This document shows, one piece after another, positions 35,249-61,511 of a stretch of 64,000 bases of DNA. A program made the translations under genes and the position numbers. The stretch's first letter is position 1. Each line of letters begins with the position of its first letter. The DNA comes from an uncultured Chloroflexia bacterium (GTDB lineage Bacteria; Chloroflexota; Limnocylindria; Limnocylindrales; CSP1-4). The DNA is taken from contig CAVWLQ010000002.1 in NCBI GenBank assembly GCA_963755995.1, forward strand, positions 129,612 to 193,611, given 5' to 3'. The notes below the pieces were generated by a model. That model made no database searches. It saw nothing but the letters and a program-made list of their open reading frames with translations, and was not told where the DNA came from.

Positions 35249-35377
35249 TCATTGTAGGACCGGCACCGGGGATGGTCGTCGTTCATGGGCTGGCCGGATG
35301 GACGGTCGTCGATGGTGGCGGAGCTGGTCGGCGCGCGACCGTGGTGCCTGACCACCTCACCCACCAGGAGTCCCGCC

Positions 35378-35545
35378 CGTGACGCTCACCCCCGGCCTCA
35401 CCCTGCTTGGTCTCGTCCTCGTCCTCGCCTCGATCCCGCTGGCGTTCAGCCTCGGCCCGCTGGTGATCGGCGCGATCATCCTGGCCTGCGCCGTCCGGCG
35501 CGCCCACCTCGGCCTGGCCGAGCCGCCGTCGGTCAGCCTCACCTG
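35378..35545 (+). CDS. Small (about 55 aa) two-helix membrane miniprotein, absent from the ORF track (below the length cutoff)
   Basis: SD AGGAG 7 nt before GTG. Translation VTLTPGLTLLGLVLVLASIPLAFSLGPLVIGAIILACAVRRAHLGLAEPPSVSLT. Confidence 0.35.
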
Positions 35546-35556
35546 ACGCGGGACCG

Positions 35557-37159
<1,603 letters not shown>

Positions 37160-37882: not shown

Positions 37883-38263
37883 ATGCCCGATGCCGCCTAC
37901 TATCGAGCCTGGCGCGCCGCCCACCCCGAATACCGCGCCCGCCAGAACCACCTCCGCAACGAGCGTCGCCGACGGGGGGGCCGGGGTGACCGAACCGCCG
38001 AGTACGCCCGGCGGCTCAGCCGCGCGATCCCGTCGGTGCCCGGCCTGCACCTCGGCCACGACCTCTTCGAGCAGGCCCGCCGCATCGTCGGTCCGAGACG
38101 GACCGCGCTGACGACCCTGTACGACCCGCTGTACGACGACCTGCTGTCGGAGGCGACGCTGGCCATCCTCGAGGGTCGCGATCCGGCCGACGCGATCCGC
38201 CACTACCGGGCCAACGAGCACACCTTCGGCCGCGTCACGCGTCCGTTGGAGGACGCCGCCTGA
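37883..38263 (+). CDS. Hypothetical protein (126 aa)
   Basis: SD GGAGG 8 nt upstream of ATG. No recognisable domain. Confidence 0.55.
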   Translation: MPDAAYYRAWRAAHPEYRARQNHLRNERRRRGGRGDRTAEYARRLSRAIPSVPGLHLGHDLFEQARRIVGPRRTALTTLYDPLYDDLLSEATLAILEGRDPADAIRHYRANEHTFGRVTRPLEDAA

Positions 38264-38325
38264 GCAGGGCCGCCCGCCCGCGTTGACAAAGCGGGCGGGC
38301 GGCTCCTAGCATCCGCACACAACCG

Positions 38326-38440
38326 AAGAGCTCTTATCAAGAGTGGCAGAGGGACCGGCCCGATGAAGCCACGACAACCTACCGACGAATCGGCAAGGTG
38401 CCAAGTCCGGGCAGGTCCTCCTGCACGATAAGGGAACCTC
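38326..38440 (+). promoter_or_regulatory. SAM-I (S-box) riboswitch aptamer in the 5' leader of the thrC-like gene
   Basis: Near-consensus S-box sequence: CUCUUAUCAAGAG-UGGCAGAGGGACCGGCCCGAUGAAGCCACGACAACC...AGGUGCCAAGUCCGGGCAGG...GAUAAGGG (P1 closing). Downstream CUCCC/GGAGA pairing can sequester the SD at about 38508. Confidence 0.8.
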
Positions 38441-38519
38441 CCTTCGGAGACCCCCTTTCTGGCCAAGGCGGTCGCCCATCCCCGGTCCCGCGGCACCTCC
38501 CGTATGCCCCGGAGAACCC

Positions 38520-39826
38520 ATGGCGATCGAGATCCTCCCCACCCCCGCAGATGCCCCACCCGCGGAGCGGATCCGTGGCCTGCGCTGTCGCGGCTGCGGT
38601 GCCGCCCAGCCGATCGGGCTGTCGTACGTCTGTCCGAGCTGTTTCGGACCGCTCGAGGTGGACTACGACTACGCGGTCGTCGGGGCCACGCTCACCCGCG
38701 AGACGATCGCCGGCCGCGCGCCCGGGATCTGGCGCTACGCCGAGCTGTTGCCGGTCGACGCGCCACCGGCTCGCGGGCTGCCGGTCGGATCCACGCCCCT
38801 CCTGGCCGCCGATCGCCTCGCCCCGGCGCTCGGCTCGACAGGCTCTGGATCAAGGACGACACGCGCAACCCATCGCTCAGCTTCAAGGACCGCGCGGTCG
38901 CCGTGGCCGCCGCCCGGGCCGTCGCGTTCGGGGTCGACGCCCTCGCGTGCGCCTCGACGGGCAACCTGGCCGGCGCCACCGCCGCCGCTGCCGCCGTCCT
39001 CGGGCTGCCGGCATACGTGTTCATCCCGGCGGACCTCGAGCCGGCCAAGATCGACCACGCGCTGGCCTACGGCGCCACGGTCGTCCCGATCGAGGGCACG
39101 TACGACGACGTCAACCGGCTCTGTCTCGAGGTCGCCGACGAGACCGGCTGGGGGTTCGTCAACATCAACCTGCGGCCGTTCTACGCCGAGGGCTCCAAGA
39201 CGCTCGCGTACGAGATCGCCGAGTCGCTCGGCTGGCGGTCGCCGGACGTGATCGTCGCGCCGGTCGCGTCGGGGGCGATGTTCACCCGGGTCGCGCGCGG
39301 CTTCGAGGAGCTCGCCGAGCTTGGCCTCATCGCGCGACGGCCGATCAGGTTCGTCGGCGGCCAGGCCGCCGGCTGCGCCCCCGTCGCCACGGCCTGGGCG
39401 GCCGGCACGGACGTCATCGAGCCGGTCCGCACCCCGGACACGATCGTCCGATCGCTCGCGATCGGCAATCCGGCCGACGGCCGCTACGCGGTCGGGCTGG
39501 CCAACGACTCGGGCGGTTCGATCGAGGCGATCGAGGACACCGTCACCGCCGAGGCGATCCGGGACGTGGCCCGGCTGGAGGGCATCTACCCGGAGACAGC
39601 CGGCGGGGTGACCCTCGCCGCGGCCGCCGCAGCGCGCCGGCGAGGCGTGATCCGCGAGGGCGACGAGGTCGTCGCGCTGCTCACCGGCAACGGACTCAAG
39701 ACGCCCGACGCCCGCTCGCTAGGGCTCGGCGATGGGGTCGCCCGGCCGGGTCAGCCCGGGCTGGCACCCGTCATCCGGCCCAGCCTGTCCGCCTTCGAGC
39801 GCTGGCTCGAGGGGGACGCGTCGTGA
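38520..39826 (+). pseudogene. Threonine-synthase-like PLP enzyme with N-terminal Cys4 zinc ribbon (ThrC/MetM-like); frameshift near 38835-38845 (missing G in CGGG)
   Basis: N-terminus CRGCGAAQPIGLSYVCPSCFGPLEV in the frame of 38520. Remainder (LWIKDDTRNPSLSFKDRAVAV...) in the frame of 38504. Confidence 0.8.
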
Positions 39827-40095
39827 GCACGGTGCGGATCCCGCCGACCCTTCGGACGGCGACCGGTGGCGAGAAGCGCGTCGCGGTCGACGGGGCGACC
39901 GTCCGCCAGCTCGTGACCGCGCTCGTCGCGGAGCATCCCGGTCTGGAGGCGCAGCTCATCGGCCAGGACGGCGACCTCAACCCGTTCGTCAACGCGTTCC
40001 TCAACGACACGGACATCCGGCATCTGCAGGGGCTGGATACGCCGGTCACGGATCGCGACACCCTGGCCCTGCTGCCGGCGATGGCCGGCGGCTGA
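39823..40095 (+). CDS. MoaD/ThiS/CysO-family sulfur-carrier protein (C-terminal -AGG)
   Basis: GTG overlaps the thrC-like stop (GTGA). Sequence VRIPPTLRTATGGEKRVAVDGATV...FVNAFLNDTDIRHLQGLDTPVTDRDTLALLPAMAGG closely parallels CysO/MoaD. Confidence 0.75.
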   Translation: MSTVRIPPTLRTATGGEKRVAVDGATVRQLVTALVAEHPGLEAQLIGQDGDLNPFVNAFLNDTDIRHLQGLDTPVTDRDTLALLPAMAGG

Positions 40096-40136: not shown

Positions 40137-41288
40137 TCAGGCCCGGTCGAGCGCCTGGACCAGGTCCGAGATCAGGTCGTCGGCGCCTTCGATCCCGACC
40201 GACAGGCGCACGAGCGACGGGTCCACCGCGAGGGGCGACCCCGCGACCGACATGTGGGTCATCGCGGCCGGGAGCTCGATCAGGGATTCGACCCCGCCAA
40301 GCGATTCGGCCAGCGTGAACAGGCGCGTCCCCTCGGCGATCGCGATCGCCCGTTCCTCCGCGGTGCGTCCGGACGGCCCGCCGGCGGTCGGCAGGAACGA
40401 CACCATCCCGCCGAACCCCGGGTAGCGCACGTCGGCGACGTCCGACCGTCCCCGCAGGAACGCGACGATGGCCGCGGCGTTCGAGCCGTGCCGCTCCATC
40501 CGCACGTGGAGTGTCCGCAGGCCGCGCAGCACGAGGAAGCAGTCGAGCGGGCCTGGAACCGCGCCCATCGCGTTCTGCAGGAACCGCAGGCGTTGGGCGA
40601 CGGCCGCGTCCGAGGTGACGGCGACGCCCAGGACGGTGTCCGAATGCCCGGACAGGTACTTGGTCGCCGAGTGGAAGACGATGTCCGCGCCGAGTCGCAG
40701 GGGCTGCTGGTTGGCCGGCGACGCGAACGTGTTGTCCACGACGACCAGCGGCCGCCGGCCACCCTCGGCCTCCCGCCGTGCCACCGTGGCCGCGGTCGCG
40801 GCGATGTCGACGACCTTGAGGTGCGGGTTCGAGGGCGTCTCGAACCAGACCAGCCGGGTCCGCTCGGAGAGCGCCTCCCAGAGCGCATCCGGACCGGCGG
40901 ACAGGTCGACGTACCGGGCGTCCACGCCGGCCCCGCGCCGGACCCGCTCGAGATAGCGGTATGTGCCGCCATAGACGTCGTCCCCGACGACGATCTCCTC
41001 GCCCGGTCCGGCCAGCTCGGCGATCGCCGCGGTCGCCGCCGACCCGGAGGCGAAGACGATCCCGTCCGTGCCGCCCTCGAGCGCGGCGACGGCCCGCTCG
41101 AGCCGTTCGCGCGTCGGGTTCTGCGAGCGCGAGTATTCGTAGCCGCCCCGGGGTCGCCCGACGCCGTCCTGAGCGTACGTCGCCGTCTGGTAGATGGGCG
41201 GCGAGACGGCGCCGGTCAGCTCGTCGGGCTCGGCGCCGGCATGGACGGCCAGGGTGTCGAAGCTTGGCTCGCGGTCGGCGTCGGGCAT
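40137..41288 (-). CDS. metB: Cystathionine gamma-synthase/gamma-lyase family PLP enzyme (Cys/Met metabolism)
   Basis: Start at Met MPDADREPSFDTLAVHAG. PLP-Lys context FHSATKYLSGHSD. 383 aa. Confidence 0.8.
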   Translation of the reverse strand: MPDADREPSFDTLAVHAGAEPDELTGAVSPPIYQTATYAQDGVGRPRGGYEYSRSQNPTRERLERAVAALEGGTDGIVFASGSAATAAIAELAGPGEEIVVGDDVYGGTYRYLERVRRGAGVDARYVDLSAGPDALWEALSERTRLVWFETPSNPHLKVVDIAATAATVARREAEGGRRPLVVVDNTFASPANQQPLRLGADIVFHSATKYLSGHSDTVLGVAVTSDAAVAQRLRFLQNAMGAVPGPLDCFLVLRGLRTLHVRMERHGSNAAAIVAFLRGRSDVADVRYPGFGGMVSFLPTAGGPSGRTAEERAIAIAEGTRLFTLAESLGGVESLIELPAAMTHMSVAGSPLAVDPSLVRLSVGIEGADDLISDLVQALDRA

Positions 41289-41293
41289 CGGGA

Positions 41294-41851
41294 TCAGCCG
41301 GCCTCCGTCTCGACCGGCGGCCAGCTGTCGAGCTGGAAGACCAGCTCCTCGCCGTCGATGTCGTCCATCTGGACGCCCGTCTGGTGGAACCCGAGCCGGC
41401 CGATGACGGCCAGCGACGCCGTGTTGCCCGGTGAGACCGACGCCTGGAAGCGATCGACGCCCTGGGCGTGGGCCCAGTCGAAGAGCGCGCGCACGACCTC
41501 CGACGCTACGCGCTGGCGACGGTACGCCGGCTCCACCCGGTAGCCGACCTCGACCCGGCCCTCGTCGTCGGGCGGGGCGTGGAACCCGCACGAACCGACG
41601 ATCCGGCGCGTCCCGTCCGACTCGGTCCGGACGATCGCGCGGCCGAGCCAGGGCTGCGCGCCCGGATCGAGCGACAGGTCGGCGATCCGGAACTGGAGGA
41701 AGTGATCGAGCGTGTCGGGCAGGTCCTCCGGGACGATCGCGCCGATCTCGGCCTCGGCCCCGGCAAGGTCGCGCGCCACGAGGCACTCCATGAAGCCCAT
41801 GGACATCGAGACGAGCTCGAACCGGGCGGTCGGGATCGGCGGGACCGTCAT
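41294..41851 (-). CDS. GNAT-family N-acetyltransferase
   Basis: Acetyl-CoA binding motif RRQRVASEVVRALFDWAHAQGVDRFQASVSPGNTASLAVIGRLGF. Confidence 0.75.
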   Translation of the reverse strand: MTVPPIPTARFELVSMSMGFMECLVARDLAGAEAEIGAIVPEDLPDTLDHFLQFRIADLSLDPGAQPWLGRAIVRTESDGTRRIVGSCGFHAPPDDEGRVEVGYRVEPAYRRQRVASEVVRALFDWAHAQGVDRFQASVSPGNTASLAVIGRLGFHQTGVQMDDIDGEELVFQLDSWPPVETEAG

Positions 41852-43269
41852 CGGCGGCCCGACGGGCGATGCGCCAGGTACTCGAGCACATCGAGCTTGG
41901 TCACGACGCCGATCGGACGCCGGCCGCTCGTCGCGATCACGGCGGACGAGCCATCCGACAGCAGCCCGAACGCCTCGTCCAGGCTCGCCGAGACGTCGAC
42001 GAACGGCAGCGGCCGGTCCATCACCTCACCGACCGTCCGCTCGACGATCGACGGGTCACGGAAGGCCCGGTCGAGGAGGCCCTTCTCGGTGATCGAGCCG
42101 ACGAAGCCCTCGAGCGCGTCGCCGTCCGGTCGCTCCGACACCGGCAGCTGGCTGATCGAGTACTCCTGGAGCGTCGCGATGGCCTCCCCCACCCGCTGGG
42201 TCGTCCGGGCGATGACGAGGTCCGGAAGGAGCCCTGCGTGGTGGCGGTCGTTGAGGAGGTCGTCGACGCGGATGACGGCGCCGGTCGTGGCCAGCAGGCC
42301 GTTGGCGCGCATCCACTCGTCGTTGTAGATCTTCGACAGGTAGCTCCGGCCGCTGTCGGGCAGCAGCACCACGACGACGGCGTCACGGCCCGCCTCCGTG
42401 CCCGCGAGCTCGCCGACGACCTGCAGGGCCGCGACCATCGCGGTCCCGCACGAGCCGCCCGAGAGGATCCCTTCCTCCCGGGTGAGCCGCCGGGCCATGG
42501 CGAACGCGTCGCGGTCGCTGACGCGGACCCAGCGGTCGATGACCGACGGGTCGTAGGTCCCCGGGACGAAATCCTCGCCGACGCCCTCGGTCAGGTACGG
42601 CCGCGCGGTGTCGCCGGACAGCACGCTGCCTTCCGGGTCCGCCCCGATCACCTGGATCGCCGGATCGTGGGCCTTCAGCACGCGCGCGGCGCCGGAGATC
42701 GTCCCGCCCGTGCCGACGCTCGCGACGAAGTGGCTGATCCGGCCGTCGGTCTGCTCCAGCAGCTCCGGCCCGGTCGTCCGCTCGTGGGCGGCCGGGTTCT
42801 CGGGGTTCCAGTACTGGTCGGGCTTGAACGCGCCAGGGATGTCCCGGGCGAGACGCGCCGCCACCGAGTAGTACGACTCGGGCGACTCGGGCGCGACGTT
42901 GGTCGGGCACAGCACGACCTCGGCGCCGTAGGCCCGCAGCAGCTGCTGCTTCTCGGACGACTGCTTGTCGGCCATGACGAAGATGCAGCGGTAGCCCTTG
43001 AGGGCGGCGGCGATGGCCAGGCCATGACCGGTGTTGCCGGAGGTCGGCTCGATGATCGTGCCGCCCGGCTTGAGCAGGCCCGCCCGTTCGGCCGCCTCGA
43101 TCATCGGCAGCCCGATCCGATCCTTGACCGAGCCGCCCGGGTTGAGCATCTCGAGCTTCGCGAGCAGCAGCGGCTGCCGGTCGGCCGGCCCGAGATCCTG
43201 GGTCAGTCGCGTGATCCGGACCAGCGGGGTGTGACCGACGAGGTCGAGGATCGACTCCGCGTACTGCAT
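41848..43269 (-). CDS. cbs: Cystathionine beta-synthase (PALP domain plus tandem CBS domains)
   Basis: PLP-Lys LNPGGSVKDRIG; SVGTGGTISG; C-terminal Bateman (CBS pair) region. Overlaps the GNAT gene by 4 nt. Confidence 0.85.
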   Translation of the reverse strand: MQYAESILDLVGHTPLVRITRLTQDLGPADRQPLLLAKLEMLNPGGSVKDRIGLPMIEAAERAGLLKPGGTIIEPTSGNTGHGLAIAAALKGYRCIFVMADKQSSEKQQLLRAYGAEVVLCPTNVAPESPESYYSVAARLARDIPGAFKPDQYWNPENPAAHERTTGPELLEQTDGRISHFVASVGTGGTISGAARVLKAHDPAIQVIGADPEGSVLSGDTARPYLTEGVGEDFVPGTYDPSVIDRWVRVSDRDAFAMARRLTREEGILSGGSCGTAMVAALQVVGELAGTEAGRDAVVVVLLPDSGRSYLSKIYNDEWMRANGLLATTGAVIRVDDLLNDRHHAGLLPDLVIARTTQRVGEAIATLQEYSISQLPVSERPDGDALEGFVGSITEKGLLDRAFRDPSIVERTVGEVMDRPLPFVDVSASLDEAFGLLSDGSSAVIATSGRRPIGVVTKLDVLEYLAHRPSGRR

Positions 43270-54790: not shown

Positions 54791-54913
54791 GAGTACCCCC
54801 GAATGGGCGAACCCGTCTTCCACGCCGCTACAGGGACTCATCGGCGGTGGACGATCCTCCACGGGTAGAATCCGGCCCGTACCGCAAGGATGTCAACTTC
54901 GTGAAGGGGACCG

Positions 54914-57539
54914 GTGCGGATCCTGAAGCGCGGCCTCGAGTTGTTGCTCGTCGTCGCGCTGGTGGCCGTGGTCGCGACGGCCGGCTTCCTCACCTGGGTC
55001 ACCGTCCGGGCGATGCCCGAGACGACCGGGACGATCAGGGCCACCGGGCTCGGCGCGGCGGTCACGGTCGCCCGCGACGGGGCCGGGATCGCGCACATCA
55101 CGGCCGACACGCCGCACGACCTCTTCTTCGCGCAGGGCTACGTCCACGCCAGCGAGCGGATGTGGCAGATGGAGGTCTGGCGGCACATCTCCGCCGGCCG
55201 GCTGTCCGAGGTGTTCGGGGCGAGCCAGCTCGACACGGACAAGTTCATCCGGACCCTCGGCTGGCGTGTCGCGGCCCAACGGGACCTCGATGCGGTCGCG
55301 CCGCCCGCCCGGGCCGTCCTCGACGCGTACACCCAGGGGGTCAACGCCTGGCTGGACGGGCATCGCGGGTCGCTCGGGCTGGCATTCCTCGTCGCCGGCG
55401 TCACGCCCGAGCCCTGGACGGACCTCGACACCGTCGCGTGGGGCAAAGTCCAGGCGTGGAACCTGGGCGGCAACTTCGACTCCGAGGTGTTCCGGTACCT
55501 GGCCGACCAGCAGCTGGGCGACCCGGCCCGGACGGATGAGCTGTTCCCCGCCTACCGCGACGGCGCTCCGATCATCACCCCGACCGGTCTGCCCGGCTCG
55601 GGTGGCGCCGGCAACCCGCGCGCCAAGCCACCCACCGGCGCGGGCTCGACGGGGACGACGGCGACCCCACGCCCGGTGGGGGCGGCCGTCAACGGCCCGG
55701 ACGCGCCGCCCTTCCTCGGTCCCGATGAGGCGGCGGCCTGGCACGCGCTCGCCGGCCTCGGCCAGGGGCTGCTCCGGACCGCCGGCCTGGACGCCGCGGA
55801 CGGCCTCGCCTCGGACCACGGGATCGGCTCGAACGACTGGGTCGTCGGCCCGGCCATGTCGGCGAGTGGCGGCGCGCTGCTCGCGAACGACCCGCACCTG
55901 GGCATCTCGATGCCCTCGATCTGGTACCTCAACGGGCTGCACTGCCGGTCGGTCTCGACCGCCTGTCCGTACGACGTGGCGGGCGTCTCGTTCCCGGGCG
56001 TGCCCGGCGTCGTCCTCGGCCACAACGCCCGGATCGCGTGGGGCGCGACCAACATCGATCCGGACGTCCAGGACCTCGTCATCGAGAAGGTCGATCCGGC
56101 CGACCCGGGCGCCTACCTGCACGCCGGCGGCTCCGTGCCCTTCACGGTCCGCCACGAGCAGATCAAGGTCAGCGGCGCGGCGCCGGTCGACCTCGAGATC
56201 CGCTCGACCGTTCACGGGCCGATCCTCAACGGGGTCGACGACCGCCTTGCCGACGCCCCGCCGATGGCGATCCGCTGGACCGCCACCCTCGAGGCGGACC
56301 GGACGTTCGAGGCGATCCTCGGCCTGGACACGGCGGCCAGCTTCGCCGACTTCCGGGCGTCACTCTCGCTGTACGGCGCGCCCGCCCAGAACTTCGTCTA
56401 CGCCGACGTCGACGGCCACATCGGCTACCAGTTCCCGGGTTACGTCCCGATCCGCTCGGCAAAGGCGGACCGCGGCGATCGACCGGTCCGTGGCGACGAC
56501 GGCAGCGGCGAGTGGACCGGTCGCGTGCCGTTCGACGACCTGCCGTGGCAGTACGATCCGGTCGACGGCGTCGTGGTCACCGCCAACAACGCCGCGGTGG
56601 ACGGTGAGTATCCCCACTTCATCGCCCAGGAATGGGACCCGGGCTTCCGCGCGGAGCGCATCCTGGACCTGATCGCCGCAGGCCGGGGCGGACGGCCTGA
56701 CCGTCCCCGAGATGGGGCAGATCCAGTTCGACGGCTCGCCGCTGGCCGCCCGGGACGTGGTCCAGTTCCTCGAGGGCACCCCAAAGACCGCCGACGGCGC
56801 GCTCATCTCGACCCGGATCGCCGATTGGGACGGGGTCTGCGACGAAGCGAGCGTCGGCTGCGCCGCGTTCAATGCGTGGCAGTACCGCGTCCAGCGCGAC
56901 ATCTTCGACGACGACCTGGGGCCGCTCGCGCGGGACTACGTCGGCAGCCCGTTCTCGTGGGTCGTGCTCCAGGGGCTGATCGACGACCCCACGTCGGCCT
57001 GGTGGGACGACATCGGCACGACCGGCGTGACCGAGACCGCGGACGACATCATCGGCCGCGCGATGGACGAGGCCGGTGCGGAGCTGCGCACCGCGCTCGG
57101 GGCGCCCGAGGGCTGGACGTGGGGCCGCCTGCACACGGCCACGTTCCGTGAGGCGACCCTGGGGACGAGCGGGATCGCACCGCTGGAGTGGTATTTCAAC
57201 GACGGTCCCCACCCGGTCTCCGGCACGGCCGGTGCGATCAACAACACCTACGTCCGGTTCGCGTCGGCCTATCCCGACCCGGACGACCCGACGGTCGTGC
57301 CCGTTGGCATCGACCACGTCTTCGACATGACCAACATGCCGAGCTATCGGCTGACCATCGATATGAGCGACCTCGATGGTGCGCGGGTCGTCATCACGAC
57401 CGGCCAGTCCGGCAACCCGTTCGACCGGCACTACGCCGACCAGGTCGGCCCGTGGCGTCGCGGCGAGACGGTGCCCCTGCTGTTCACGCCGGCCGCAATC
57501 GCGGGGGCGACGGTCGCGACGCTGACCTTGACGCCCTGA
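54914..57539 (+). pseudogene. Penicillin amidase / acyl-homoserine-lactone acylase family (S45 Ntn-hydrolase), N-terminal TM anchor; frameshift near 56690-56700
   Basis: N-terminal part (frame of 54914) includes the alpha-subunit and nucleophile region (GIGSNDWVVG). C-terminal part continues in the frame of 56712 (GQIQFDGSPLAARDVVQFLEG...). Confidence 0.8.
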
Positions 57540-58178: not shown

Positions 58179-58514
58179 TCACTCGTTCACCTCGAGCGGG
58201 CCGTCGGGAACCTCGATGAGGATCCGGCCACCCTCGACGACGACCGAGTAGACCGCGAGCGGCAGCTCCGCGGGTGGGTCGAGCGGCTCGCCGTTCTCGA
58301 GATCGAAGCGCGACAGGTGCAGGGCGCAGGTCAGCGTGCCGGCCGTCAGGAAGCCCTTGTCGAGCTCGAAGTACTCGTGGCTGCAGATGCCCTGGACGGC
58401 GCGGAGGTCGCCGTTGGAGTTGATCACGAGGACCTGGTCGGTGCCGTCCACCCAGGCCATCTTCATCGTGCCCGGCGGGACCTCGTCGACCCCCAGGAGG
58501 TCGATCCGTCTCAC
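58179..58514 (-). CDS. Rieske [2Fe-2S] ferredoxin-like protein (suf-associated)
   Basis: CSHEYFELDKGF...CALHLSRFDLENGEP (CxH...CxxH boxes). GTG start overlaps the sufD stop (GTGA). Confidence 0.8.
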   Translation of the reverse strand: MRRIDLLGVDEVPPGTMKMAWVDGTDQVLVINSNGDLRAVQGICSHEYFELDKGFLTAGTLTCALHLSRFDLENGEPLDPPAELPLAVYSVVVEGGRILIEVPDGPLEVNE

Positions 58515-59897
58515 GCGGCGGCGACGCCACCCGTGCCGAGCCCCGCTCCGGCGTCCCACTTCGCCTCGAGACGCTCGCGCAGCCGGTCCTGGGCCTCGAC
58601 CAGCGGGACGCGGGCGACGACCGGCTCGAGGAAGCCGAGGACGATGAACTTGCGCGCCTCGTCGGGCGGGATGCCACGGCTCTCGAGGTAGAACAGCTGG
58701 GTCTCGTCGATCGGGCCGACCGAGCTCGCGTGCGCGGCGCGGCGGCAGTCGGGCTGGTCGATCTCCAGGCTCGGGATGGCGACCGAGCGGGTCGCCTTGG
58801 ACAGGTTCATCCCGAACTCGCCCAGGTAGCTGTCGGTCCCGACCGCGGACTTCTCGATGACGATCATGCCCTTCATGAAGGACTTGGCCCTGTCCATCAG
58901 CGCGCCCTTCGACAGCAGGTTGCCGGTCGTGTCGCGGCCGATGGTGGCGCGTGTACGAGGTCAGGTCGAACAGCTGGTCCTCGCCGCCGAACACGATCTC
59001 GACCTGCTCGACCGAGCTCCGGTCGCCGTCGAGGACGTTGTCCACCCGGCTCCGCGTGAGCCGGGAACCGAGCTGGGCGAGCGCCCAGTGGAGGGTCGCC
59101 CCCTCGCCGACGACGGCATGGCGATGCTGGAATGCGACGGTCGAGGTCGACAGCTCCTGGAGGCTGGAGACCGACAGCTTCGCCTCGCGGCCGAGCGTCA
59201 CCTCCATCGTCCCGGTGAAGAGGCCCGGGCGACCATCGGCCTCGTCGCCCGACGGGACGAGCTCCTCGAGCAGGCTGACCTCCGCGCCGTCGCCGACCTC
59301 GACGATCGTCCGCGTGATCAGGGCTCGATCCGGGCGCACCGACGGCCCAGCGGATGACGATCGGCTCGCTCGAGGCGGACGCCGGCGGGGACGCGCAGGA
59401 CGACGCCGTGGGTCCAGCCCGCGCGGGTCAGCTGGGCGAGCTTGTCGTCCTCGGGCAGGGAGCCGGCGTCGGGCGACCAGCGCCTCGGCGGCGTCATCGT
59501 CGACGAACGTCGCCGAGCGTCTCGAGCGTGACGCCGGCCGTCGGCCGCGGCGGCGTCGAGCGCGAGGATCTCGACGCCGTCCTCTCGGAACGAGGCGAGG
59601 CCGGCCGTCCCGGCGTCGGGCTCGGTCCCGTGCGGGAGCAGGTCGTCGGCGTCGGGCGCGGGCATACGGGGCCACGTCATCGAGGACCGCGGTCCGCAGG
59701 TCGACGTAGGTCGTGTACAGCATGTTCGACTCGATCGGCAGCGCCTCGAACCGGGCGAGGGCGGCCCGCCGGTCGGCGCTGAGCCAGGCGGGCTCGCCGT
59801 CGGTGATCCGATCGACGTGCCCGTCGTCGAACGGGAACGAGAGGTCCGAGGGCGAGCGACGGGCGGGCCGGACGCGTGACGCCGGAGCGTCGGTCAT
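58511..59897 (-). pseudogene. sufD: Fe-S cluster assembly protein SufD; three frameshifts (about 59690, 59320, 58900)
   Basis: Segments MTDAPASRV...TTYVDLRTAV (frame 2), DLLPHGTEPDAGTAGLASFREDGVEILALD...GVVLRVPAGVRLE (frame 1), LITRTIVEVGDGAEVSLLEE...VAFQHRHAVVGEGATLHW...QLFDLTSYTRH (frame 2), MKGMIVIEKSAVGTDSYLGEF...QLFYLESRGIPPDEARKFIVLGF (frame 1). ATGA overlap with sufB. Confidence 0.75.
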
Positions 59898-61297
59898 CCG
59901 AGCGACCCCTCCATCTCGAGCTTGACCAGCCGGTTGAACTCGATGGCGTACTCCATCGGGAGCTCCTTGGTGAAGACCTCGAGGAAGCCCTGCACGATGA
60001 GGTTGGTCGCCTCGTTCTCGGTCAGGCCGCGGCTCATCAGGTAGAAGACCTGGTCCGCGCTGACCTTGCCGACGGTCGCCTCGTGGGTCATCGAGGTGTC
60101 GTCTTCCTGGATGTCGATGTACGGGTAGGTGTCGCTCCGGCTGATGTCGTCCATCATCAGCGCGTCGCAGCGGACGCTGGCCACGACGTTCGTGGCGCCC
60201 GGCGAGACCTTGAGCTGGCCGCGATAGGTCGCCCGGCCGCCGTCCTTGGAGACGGACTTGCTGACGATCCGCGAGCGCGTGTTGGGGGCGAGGTGGACGG
60301 CCTTGGCGCCGGTGTCCTGGTGCTGGCCCTTGCCCGCGACCGCGACGCTGATGATGTCCGCCGTGGCGCCCTCGCCGCGCAGGTAGATGGCCGGGAACTT
60401 GACCGTCTTGCGCGAGCCGGTGTTCGCGTCGATCCACTCGACCGTCGAGTTCTCGTACGCGTGGGCGCGCTTGGTCACCAGGTTGTAGACGTCGTTCGAC
60501 CAGTTCTGGATGGTGGTGTAGCGGACCTTCGAGCCGGGCAGCGCGACGACCTCGACGACCGCCACGTGGAGCGACTCGGTGGCGTAGATCGGGGCGGTGC
60601 AGCCCTCGATGTAGTGGACCTTGGCGCCCTCGTCGACGACGATCAGCGTCCGCTCGAACTGGCCCGTGTTCTCGCCGTTGATCCGGAAGTAGGCCTGCAG
60701 GGGGAGCGGGACCTCGACGCCCTTGGGCACGTACACGAACGAGCCGCCGGACCAGACCGCCGCGTTGAGGGCGGAGAACTTGTTGTCCTCGGCGGGCACG
60801 ACCGTGCCGAAGTGCTTGCGGAAGATCTCCGGGTACTCGATCAGCGCCTGGTCCGTGCCCATGAACACGACACCGAGCTTGGACAGCTCTTCCTTGACCG
60901 AGTGGTAGACCACCTCGGAGTCGTACTGGGCGCCGACGCCGGCGAGGAACTTGCGCTCCGCCTCGGGGATGCCCAGCCGCTCGAACGTCGCCTTGATCTG
61001 GTCCGGGACGTCGTCCCACGACTTCTCTTCGCGCTCGGACGGCTTGCGGTAGTAGACGATGTTGTCGAAGTTGATCCGGTCGAGCCCGTCCGTCCACGTC
61101 GGCAGCGGGCGCTTCATGAAGTGCTCGTAGGCGCGCAGGCGGTACTGGAGCATCCAGTCCGGCTCGTTCTTGAAGGCGCTGATCTCCTCGACCGTCGCAC
61201 GCGTCAGGCCGCGCTTGGTCTCGGCGAGGTAGGCGATGTCGTCGTGGAAGGCGAACTGATCGCGCTGGTCGGTGACGATCTCGCGGGTGGCGGTCAT
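59894..61297 (-). CDS. sufB: Fe-S cluster assembly protein SufB
   Basis: 467 aa, highly conserved (HYIEGCTAPIY, VKFPAIYLRGEGA, EATVGKVSADQVFYLMSRGL). Uninterrupted. Confidence 0.9.
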   Translation of the reverse strand: MTATREIVTDQRDQFAFHDDIAYLAETKRGLTRATVEEISAFKNEPDWMLQYRLRAYEHFMKRPLPTWTDGLDRINFDNIVYYRKPSEREEKSWDDVPDQIKATFERLGIPEAERKFLAGVGAQYDSEVVYHSVKEELSKLGVVFMGTDQALIEYPEIFRKHFGTVVPAEDNKFSALNAAVWSGGSFVYVPKGVEVPLPLQAYFRINGENTGQFERTLIVVDEGAKVHYIEGCTAPIYATESLHVAVVEVVALPGSKVRYTTIQNWSNDVYNLVTKRAHAYENSTVEWIDANTGSRKTVKFPAIYLRGEGATADIISVAVAGKGQHQDTGAKAVHLAPNTRSRIVSKSVSKDGGRATYRGQLKVSPGATNVVASVRCDALMMDDISRSDTYPYIDIQEDDTSMTHEATVGKVSADQVFYLMSRGLTENEATNLIVQGFLEVFTKELPMEYAIEFNRLVKLEMEGSLG

Positions 61298-61511
61298 CGG
61301 GTCTCCGGTCGTGGGTGGAGGCGGCGCGTCGAGCGTCGCGGGCGGGCTCGCGGGGCCTGTGTCTAATTCCGAGTCAGATTATCGGGATTAACGGCCGAAG
61401 CGTCAACGCGGGCCTCTTCCGCGACTTCGGCGGATGATGTTCCGGACGCCGACCAGCCACCGGGCGCGGAAGGGCTCGTCCGGTCGTGGGCCGGGTAGAT
61501 GGAGGTGCCCC

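Follow-up and report, generated by a model that had tools for sequence, protein, structure and literature searches.

A probable MetM/MetO-type homocysteine synthesis operon under a SAM-I riboswitch in soil 'Candidatus Limnocylindrales' Chloroflexota

Why would a gene that resembles threonine synthase (ThrC) stand behind a riboswitch for S-adenosylmethionine (SAM)? The question is raised by a 64,000-nucleotide (nt) stretch of DNA from an uncultured Chloroflexia bacterium (GenBank assembly GCA_963755995.1, contig CAVWLQ010000002.1, positions 129,612 to 193,611), referred to here as the window, in which an S-box aptamer precedes a ThrC homolog and the gene for a small sulfur carrier. A first-pass annotation, made from the letters of the window alone, had likened this arrangement to the MetM/MetO route of Streptomyces, in which a protein thiocarboxylate provides the sulfur of homocysteine. 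The present analysis supports the comparison: a ThrC homolog distinct from the canonical enzyme, an adjacent carrier ending in Gly-Gly, a SAM riboswitch, the pairing of enzyme and carrier across phyla and the occasional presence of ThiF and JAB partners together suggest that the locus is probably an operon of two genes, repressed by SAM, through which a soil member of the 'Candidatus Limnocylindrales' (Chloroflexota) would make homocysteine in the manner of MetM/MetO.

The riboswitch, the enzyme gene and the carrier gene

In window positions, the unit consists of the following features:

38283-38312, plus strand: promoter-like site, TTGACA, 18-nt spacer, TAGCAT; sigma-70-like, 10 of 12 consensus matches
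38331-38434, plus strand: SAM-I (S-box) aptamer, RF00162, full model; P1 formed by CUCUUAUC and GAUAAGGG
38435-38519, plus strand: expression platform, 85 nt, with predicted helices and conserved sequences and no terminator
38520-38833, plus strand: ThrC-like gene, 5' part, residues 1-105 with a Cys4 ribbon; ends in a truncated GGG codon
38832-38834, plus strand: site of a 1-nt deletion; CTC GG- CTC in the window, CTC GGG CTC in relatives
38834-39826, plus strand: ThrC-like gene, 3' part, pyridoxal phosphate (PLP) domain with the SFKDR lysine K123, STGNLA and LRPFYAEGSKT
39823-40095, plus strand: MetO/CysO-like carrier, 90 amino acids (aa), ThiS/MoaD family, C-terminal AMAGG

Rfam bore out the near-consensus S-box aptamer of the first-pass annotation. 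RF00162 matched over its full length (model positions 1-108) with 74.8 bits, compared to a gathering score of 44.4 (E 1.1e-15), and this aptamer was the only Rfam match above threshold in the window. It lies 85 nt upstream of the ATG of the ThrC-like gene, on the same strand, and 3' of a conserved promoter-like site whose 10 of 12 consensus matches compare with 0.1 expected in shuffles. Both hexamers of this site are kept in three related loci (L002, L003 and L005), and a transcript initiated there would start about 10-15 nt 5' of the aptamer. Among 44 distinct homologous leaders, 94.3% of the aptamer helix cells are paired and 13 of the 22 pairs carry changes on both sides, compared to 36-49% paired in slid controls, in an alignment that was fitted to the model, which favours structure. 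This covariation supports the predicted helices P1, P2 and P3. Unconstrained minimum-free-energy folding of the leader did not recover the aptamer (z = -0.8). At the base of P3 (GACAACC...GGUGCC; window 38373-38376 and 38398-38403), A.C replaces the G-C of the consensus as second base pair, a feature common to the Limnocylindrales-type subgroup; the adjacent pairs, which contact SAM in the 2GIS structure, are intact.

The enzyme gene runs from the ATG at 38520 to the TGA at 39824-39826. Its initial description as a ThrC homolog with a Cys4 ribbon holds: the protein matches Pfam PALP (PF00291) with E 3e-69 and has an N-terminal ribbon C23-x2-C26-x11-C38-x2-C41, and K123 of SFKDR, the PLP lysine, is invariant, but a break of the reading frame near 38833 had been overlooked and is taken up below. 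Solved ThrC relatives (PDB 2zsj, 1uim, 2d1f and 6cgq) are 33-36% identical over residues 70-398. An AlphaFold2 (AF2) model of a protein 96% identical to that of the window (P0001) has a predicted local distance difference test score (pLDDT) of 91, and its matches in the PDB are all ThrC structures that leave the ribbon uncovered. The strands of the ribbon (residues 18-23 and 44-49) are well defined in the model, where the 10-residue blocks over residues 18-49 average a pLDDT of 89-94 starting at residue 21. PDB searches with the protein and with the P0001 model returned no MetM structure among the deposits.

Two candidate interpretations of the enzyme were discarded. The Zn ribbon was considered as a carrier-docking domain specific to MetM and rejected as a diagnostic, as archaeal-type ThrC also aligns across it: NCBIfam profiles of archaeal-type ThrC align from residue 21, and haloarchaeal plasmid genes annotated as thrC align from residues 5-21. 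Zn-ribbon homologs with ThrC-like motifs exist too. Cysteate synthase (TIGR03844) was rejected at 58.6 bits, compared to a cut-off of 324.9.

The junction between the two genes is as first described, with the GTG of the carrier gene at 39823 overlapping the TGA of the enzyme gene as GTGA. The 90-aa MoaD/CysO-like product ends ...PAMAGG directly before the stop codon (40093-40095), so that Gly-Gly stands at the extreme C-terminus. It matches Pfam ThiS (PF02597) with E 6.5e-15, and its best solved relatives are the CysO-type 4n6e_B (E 2e-20) and Mycobacterium tuberculosis CysO, 3dwg_C (E 6e-16). The first-pass annotation had found no adjacent E1-type activating enzyme (E1), and the same is true of the whole window: ThiF, rhodanese and JAB are absent from the open reading frames (ORFs) of the 64 kb, and tblastn of the entire window with E1 queries gave no match. 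These queries were Escherichia coli MoeB and ThiF sequences, validated by their hits, as they recovered E1 genes in 12 related loci.

The closest counterpart to this architecture comes from Streptomyces. PMC12172450 describes MetM as a novel homocysteine synthase of that genus (Hasebe et al. 2024, AEM 90:e01247-24) and reports, for metM of Streptomyces albulus, a SAM riboswitch upstream, metO as the neighbouring sulfur-carrier gene and homologs in cyanobacteria. In the GapMind 2026 preprint, O-phosphohomoserine is converted to homocysteine through a thiocarboxylate by MetM, MetO, Mec and MoeZ, and MetM is said to be commonly misannotated as threonine synthase; the work of Hasebe et al. is also described in a 2026 Bacillus subtilis preprint. 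The Streptomyces route named in the first-pass annotation is the one set out in these accounts.

The window resembles the S. albulus MetM/MetO locus in having a ThrC-homologous gene followed by a small ThiS/MoaD-type carrier gene, a SAM riboswitch upstream, an E1 that is not necessarily adjacent and an enzyme that standard pipelines call threonine synthase. It differs in its uncultured 'Ca. Limnocylindrales' host, its terminator-less leader, the frameshift of its gene as assembled and the convergent cbs-GNAT-metB genes, which resemble a reverse-transsulfuration operon. With the CysM-CysO-Mec-MoeZ system of M. tuberculosis it has in common a ThiS/MoaD carrier terminating in GG and, on the proposed function, an O-phospho amino acid acceptor and a thiocarboxylate sulfur donor, and JAB and ThiF partners are found in some related loci; however, the synthase there belongs to the CysK family and acts on O-phosphoserine, whereas here a ThrC-family enzyme stands under SAM control. 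A protein thiocarboxylate is likewise the sulfur donor for homocysteine in the HcyS/HcyD/HcyF/MetY system of Wolinella succinogenes. The enzyme of that system is a MetY-type O-acetylhomoserine sulfhydrylase with an acylhomoserine acceptor; it is not a ThrC homolog and does not use phosphohomoserine.

In the proposed pathway, transcription would proceed from the sigma-70-like promoter near 38283-38312 and the leader would fold into the SAM-I aptamer; abundant SAM would lock P1, and the expression of both downstream genes would drop. The ThrC-family enzyme would accept sulfur instead of water at C-gamma of an O-phosphohomoserine-derived intermediate, which would yield homocysteine. The sulfur would be donated by the C-terminal thiocarboxylate of the 90-aa Gly-Gly carrier, and a MoeZ/ThiF-type E1, with its gene in another part of the genome, would adenylate and sulfurate the carrier.

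Conservation of the pair and divergence from threonine synthase

Conservation was examined in 80 loci from species-representative genomes, drawn from a homolog alignment at 45-50% identity, and in 80 metagenome loci; a first, wider alignment (A2) proved too diverse for the locus scan, and the narrower A3 was used. A ThiS-like ORF follows directly on the same strand in 76 of 83 loci, with a median gap of 13 nt, in about 10 phyla. It was found in 25 of 26 loci of Actinomycetota, 19 of 20 of Cyanobacteriota, 9 of 13 of Chloroflexota and all 9 of Nitrospirota, and also in Verrucomicrobiota, Planctomycetota, Omnitrophota, Acidobacteriota and Thermodesulfobacteriota. Of 34 loci submitted to Rfam, 24 had a SAM-I aptamer immediately upstream, and a covariance model built from these hits was used to scan the species genomes. 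With this model, SAM-I was identified directly upstream in 41 of 80 genomes, comprising Actinomycetota (25/26), Chloroflexota (9/13), Verrucomicrobiota (4/5, including Kiritimatiellae), Planctomycetota (2/3) and Acidobacteriota (1/1); the same scan found none upstream in Cyanobacteriota (0/20) or Nitrospirota (0/9).

The arrangement also occurs in a cultured organism, Nonomuraea gerenzanensis, where SAM-I, a ribbon-bearing ThrC-like gene and the gene for a 91-aa GG carrier follow one another in the same order; the enzyme is 51% and the carrier 40% identical to the window proteins. Nonomuraea served as the actinomycete stand-in, being the only actinomycete match from tblastn of a plasmid collection, and a database search seeded with it returned only Streptosporangiales among the best 120 matches.

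Candidate partners adjoin the pair in part of the sample. E1 (ThiF) genes lie next to it in the 12 loci found by tblastn and JAB genes in 11 loci, and the ThiF and Prok-JAB domains were confirmed by Pfam. In a Nitrospirota locus (L039, 6118-11152) the order is CysK/M-like PALP, ThiF, MetM-like, MetO-like, ThiF, JAB. This block recurs in L023, L044, L059 and L072, again in Nitrospirota and with no SAM riboswitch, and in these loci a single carrier may supply a cysteine synthase as well as a homocysteine synthase. In a metagenome-assembled genome (MAG) of Actinomycetota (L012, 9226-10290), the carrier directly after the MetM-like gene reaches ...AIAGG and runs in frame, with no stop, into a ThiF domain. 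This has the appearance of a natural fusion of carrier and E1, from which the carrier would have to be released by proteolysis, and the same locus contains a JAB gene. In L022, L040, L061, L082, L009 and L043 (Nitrospirota and Chloroflexota), genes for aspartokinase, canonical ThrC or both are found no more than a few kb from the pair, and this proximity ties the pair to the aspartate-family pathway. An Rfam PYLIS_3 match in L043 (5418-5517, Anaerolineae; 42.6 bits, gathering score 38), just 5' of a ThiF-like gene, is probably a chance match. Of two further candidates in Acidimicrobiia, ORFs 5' of the riboswitch that clustered with ThrC matched nothing in Pfam and were set aside as spurious, and a conserved ORF 3' of the carrier gene, PP-loop ATPase-like by eye, gave no Pfam hit.

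Canonical ThrC is encoded in the same locus in six cases. The canonical paralogs show 34-39% identity, align only from residue 68-72 on and have no ribbon. In total, 42 positions are at least 90% conserved among 83 clade members and different in eight canonical ThrCs. These changes include STGN-TS to STGN-LA; N219 to R, R222 to Y and Q226 to S (NPYRxEGQKT to RPYYAEGSKT); NA to SG at 251-252; SW to DG at 320-321; and GLKD to GLKT. The window protein itself has STGNLA, RPFYAEGSKT and GNGLKT in place of the ThrC motifs STGNTS, NPYRxEGQKT and GNGLKD. Judged by ThrC structures, several of the substituted loops would line the substrate/phosphate site. Compared to canonical ThrC (TIGR00260), the window protein thus shares the fold, the PLP lysine motif and presumably the substrate, O-phosphohomoserine, but it carries an additional Cys4 ribbon at its N-terminus, and its gene stands between a SAM riboswitch and a carrier gene.

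The frameshift and competing explanations

Several observations weigh against a functional operon of the MetM/MetO type. The ThrC-like gene is split in the window, with residues 1-105 in the frame of 38520 and the remainder in the frame of 38834. The protein scores 240.3 bits with the NCBIfam thrC model (TIGR00260; cut-off 167.1), a pass that shows family-level homology only. Its identity to the cyanobacterial and Nonomuraea homologs is 48-51%, and its putative orthology to S. albulus MetM is judged from context and from such indirect identity values. Genes for an E1, a JAB protein and homoserine kinase are all absent from the 64-kb window, and in four related loci (L004, L006, L007 and L010) SAM-I and the ThrC-like gene occur with no ThiS-like gene downstream; the enzyme of these loci may use free sulfide or a distant carrier. 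Two-state folding of the window leader gave no clear SAM-dependent difference in how accessible the Shine-Dalgarno sequence (SD) and the start codon are. Finally, a Microcystis homolog that is 51.6% identical to MetM had threonine synthase and deaminase activities in vitro, with no clear MetM function in vivo (PMC12172450). Because the Microcystis homolog behaved in this way, members of the clade that lack the riboswitch may differ in role.

If the frameshift were real, the locus would be a decaying pseudogene in a strain that does not produce the enzyme and retains riboswitch and carrier as remnants; one base is truly missing from the window sequence, and the gene is split after residue 105. 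However, the deletion falls in a GGG run, where the window has CTCGGCTC (about 38829-38836) and the syntenic loci L001 and L002 have CTCGGGCTC, a difference of one G in a homopolymer. Among the 120 closest database matches, which are 85-96% identical, every one is an intact single protein of 431-442 aa, and both halves of the gene are 94-100% identical to the reconstruction, with no further lesions. At least three other genes of the window are also split (35357-37159, minus strand; 54905-57539, plus strand; 58511-61378, minus strand), as is typical of indel-prone assemblies. Of these genes, pckA and a penicillin amidase gene are each divided over two frames, and SufB/D-core matches occur in two ORFs separated by about 0.9 kb. 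Calls for phosphoenolpyruvate carboxykinase are split in the sister contigs L001 and L002 too, and L002 also has a split cystathionine beta-synthase (CBS). The splits in the window point to an indel-prone, probably long-read, assembly. Since the lesion lies in a G homopolymer, all of the closest homologs are intact and other genes of the window and of the sister contigs are split, the frameshift is probably an assembly error, and a pseudogene is improbable.

The remaining alternatives concern the reaction. An ordinary Zn-ribbon, archaeal-like threonine synthase, with a carrier that belongs to another pathway (molybdopterin, thiamin or protein modification), would agree with the score above the TIGR00260 cut-off, with the best solved relatives all being ThrC, with the Zn ribbon of proteins annotated as archaeal ThrC and with the ThrC and deaminase activities of the cyanobacterial homolog in vitro (PMC12172450). 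Such an enzyme is nevertheless very unlikely, as control is by SAM and not by threonine in 41 of 80 genomes, a carrier gene adjoins the enzyme gene in 76 of 83 loci, canonical ThrC paralogs occur in the same loci, the 42 clade substitutions include T to L in STGN, R222 to Y and Q226 to S, and no molybdopterin or thiamin genes lie near the pair in the window. A different sulfur product, either cysteine, as with CysM and CysO, or a thio-cofactor precursor, with SAM control reflecting the use of SAM and not the supply of methionine, is judged slightly less likely again. The closest similarity of the carrier is to proteins of the CysO type, and in Nitrospirota and Dehalococcoidia loci the pair is accompanied by CysK/M-like genes, ThiF and JAB; yet CysM belongs to the CysK family and not to the ThrC family, the CysK/M-like gene, where present, is additional and separate, and the characterised system of this architecture makes homocysteine, according to PMC12172450 and the GapMind 2026 preprint. 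The probable function of the locus thus remains a MetM/MetO-type synthesis of homocysteine.

Mode of switching, genomic neighbours and significance

The 85-nt expression platform contains several segments through which the aptamer might act. A mini-hairpin, CUCC-CUUC-GGAG, lies at 38438-38449, and the sequence CCCUU, present twice (38440-38444 and 38453-38457), could pair with AAGGG of the P1 3' strand. Further downstream, CGGUCGCC (38469-38476) is complementary to GGCGAUCG (38522-38529), which covers codons 1-4, and CCGG at 38482-38485 is complementary to the CCGG at 38509-38512 that overlaps the SD GGAG (38511-38514). No terminator was found in the window leader by a terminator scan or by an explicit scan of hairpin energies; the terminator scan was also negative on the terminator-type leader L098, as the program extends that stem into the T tract, and was replaced by the hairpin-energy scan.

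A comparison of 33 Limnocylindrales-type leaders revealed two classes of platform on near-identical aptamers. In 16 of the 33, a strong hairpin begins 0-11 nt past P1 (4-11 nt in 15 of these), with the form GAGACCCUUCC...GGAAGGGUCUU, a predicted energy of -15 to -23 kcal/mol and a U-rich tail behind it; its 5' arm (CCCUU) could pair with AAGGG in the 3' strand of P1. As predicted structures, these 16 sister leaders have a textbook terminator/antiterminator design, with L098 (1412-1500), L105, L110, L099, L102 and L103 as examples. The other 17 leaders, including that of the window, have the CUCC-CUUC-GGAG mini-hairpin only and no terminator, and their best local hairpins reach -8 to -12 kcal/mol with no T tail. 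What the terminator-less class has instead are conserved segments complementary to the SD and the first codons.

Window-type leaders are also conserved in spacer length (84-91 nt) and in several blocks, and nucleotide conservation in the first five codons is far above that in the next dozen. RNAalifold predicted 19 pairs on 11 window-type leaders, none of them with changes on both sides. Because the window leader lacks the terminator that is present in its sister leaders, control of translation initiation is the favoured mode of switching, a proposal for which the chances appear about even; a Rho-dependent effect is a possible alternative.

The genes beyond the carrier lie on the opposite strand and are convergent to the riboswitch unit, for which they provide context only:

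40137-41288, minus strand: metB-like PLP enzyme of Cys/Met metabolism (cystathionine gamma-synthase or gamma-lyase family), PF01053, E 1e-118
41294-41851, minus strand: GNAT acetyltransferase, PF13302, E 4e-18, between metB-like and cbs
41848-43269, minus strand: CBS, with PALP and CBS domains, TIGR01137, 538 bits (cut-off 510)

The adjoining cbs-GNAT-metB operon of the first-pass annotation was recovered by these Pfam and NCBIfam matches; with NF005871 the metB-like protein scores 448 bits, under the cut-off of 513. Synteny with the metB-like gene is common to L001, L002, L003, L004, L005 and L014, and that of cbs-GNAT-metB is confined to Limnocylindrales-type loci. In L001 and L002 the order is pckA, hypothetical, SAM-I, thrC-like, thiS-like, metB, GNAT, cbs, acyltransferase, lgt. 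On the other side of the unit, a 126-aa ORF (37883-38263, plus strand) with no match in Pfam or NCBIfam ends just 5' of the riboswitch promoter, and L001 has an ORF of equal length in the same place. The closest homologs of the enzyme are soil-metagenome proteins, and those with names are assigned to 'Candidatus Limnocylindrales' or Chloroflexota.

The presence of CBS and an enzyme of the gamma-lyase/synthase family suggests an interconversion of homocysteine and cysteine beside a pair that would form homocysteine, and it may be speculated that sulfur flows from homocysteine to cysteine at this locus. A more comprehensive scenario is that the Limnocylindrales switch has lost an ancestral terminator and acts on translation through pairing of CGGUCGCC with codons 1-4 and of CCGG with the 5' half of the SD, and that MetM/MetO, given its tail-to-tail position with cbs-GNAT-metB, is the main entry point of reduced sulfur, with homocysteine formed first from a protein thiocarboxylate and cysteine then made by reverse transsulfuration. 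This scenario is offered as a conjecture that is rather unlikely to hold in full.

The locus represents the known MetM/MetO system and not a new kind of system; what is new is its occurrence in Limnocylindria-type Chloroflexota, an abundant uncultured lineage of soils. The pairing of enzyme and carrier is widespread, extending over about ten phyla, with SAM-I control in about half of the sampled species, and part of the value of the locus lies in its sister leaders, some of which have a terminator platform and some of which do not. Genes of this type are routinely labelled 'threonine synthase' and 'SAMP1/MoaD'. The finding therefore bears on annotation and on the metabolic reconstruction of methionine prototrophy in MAGs.

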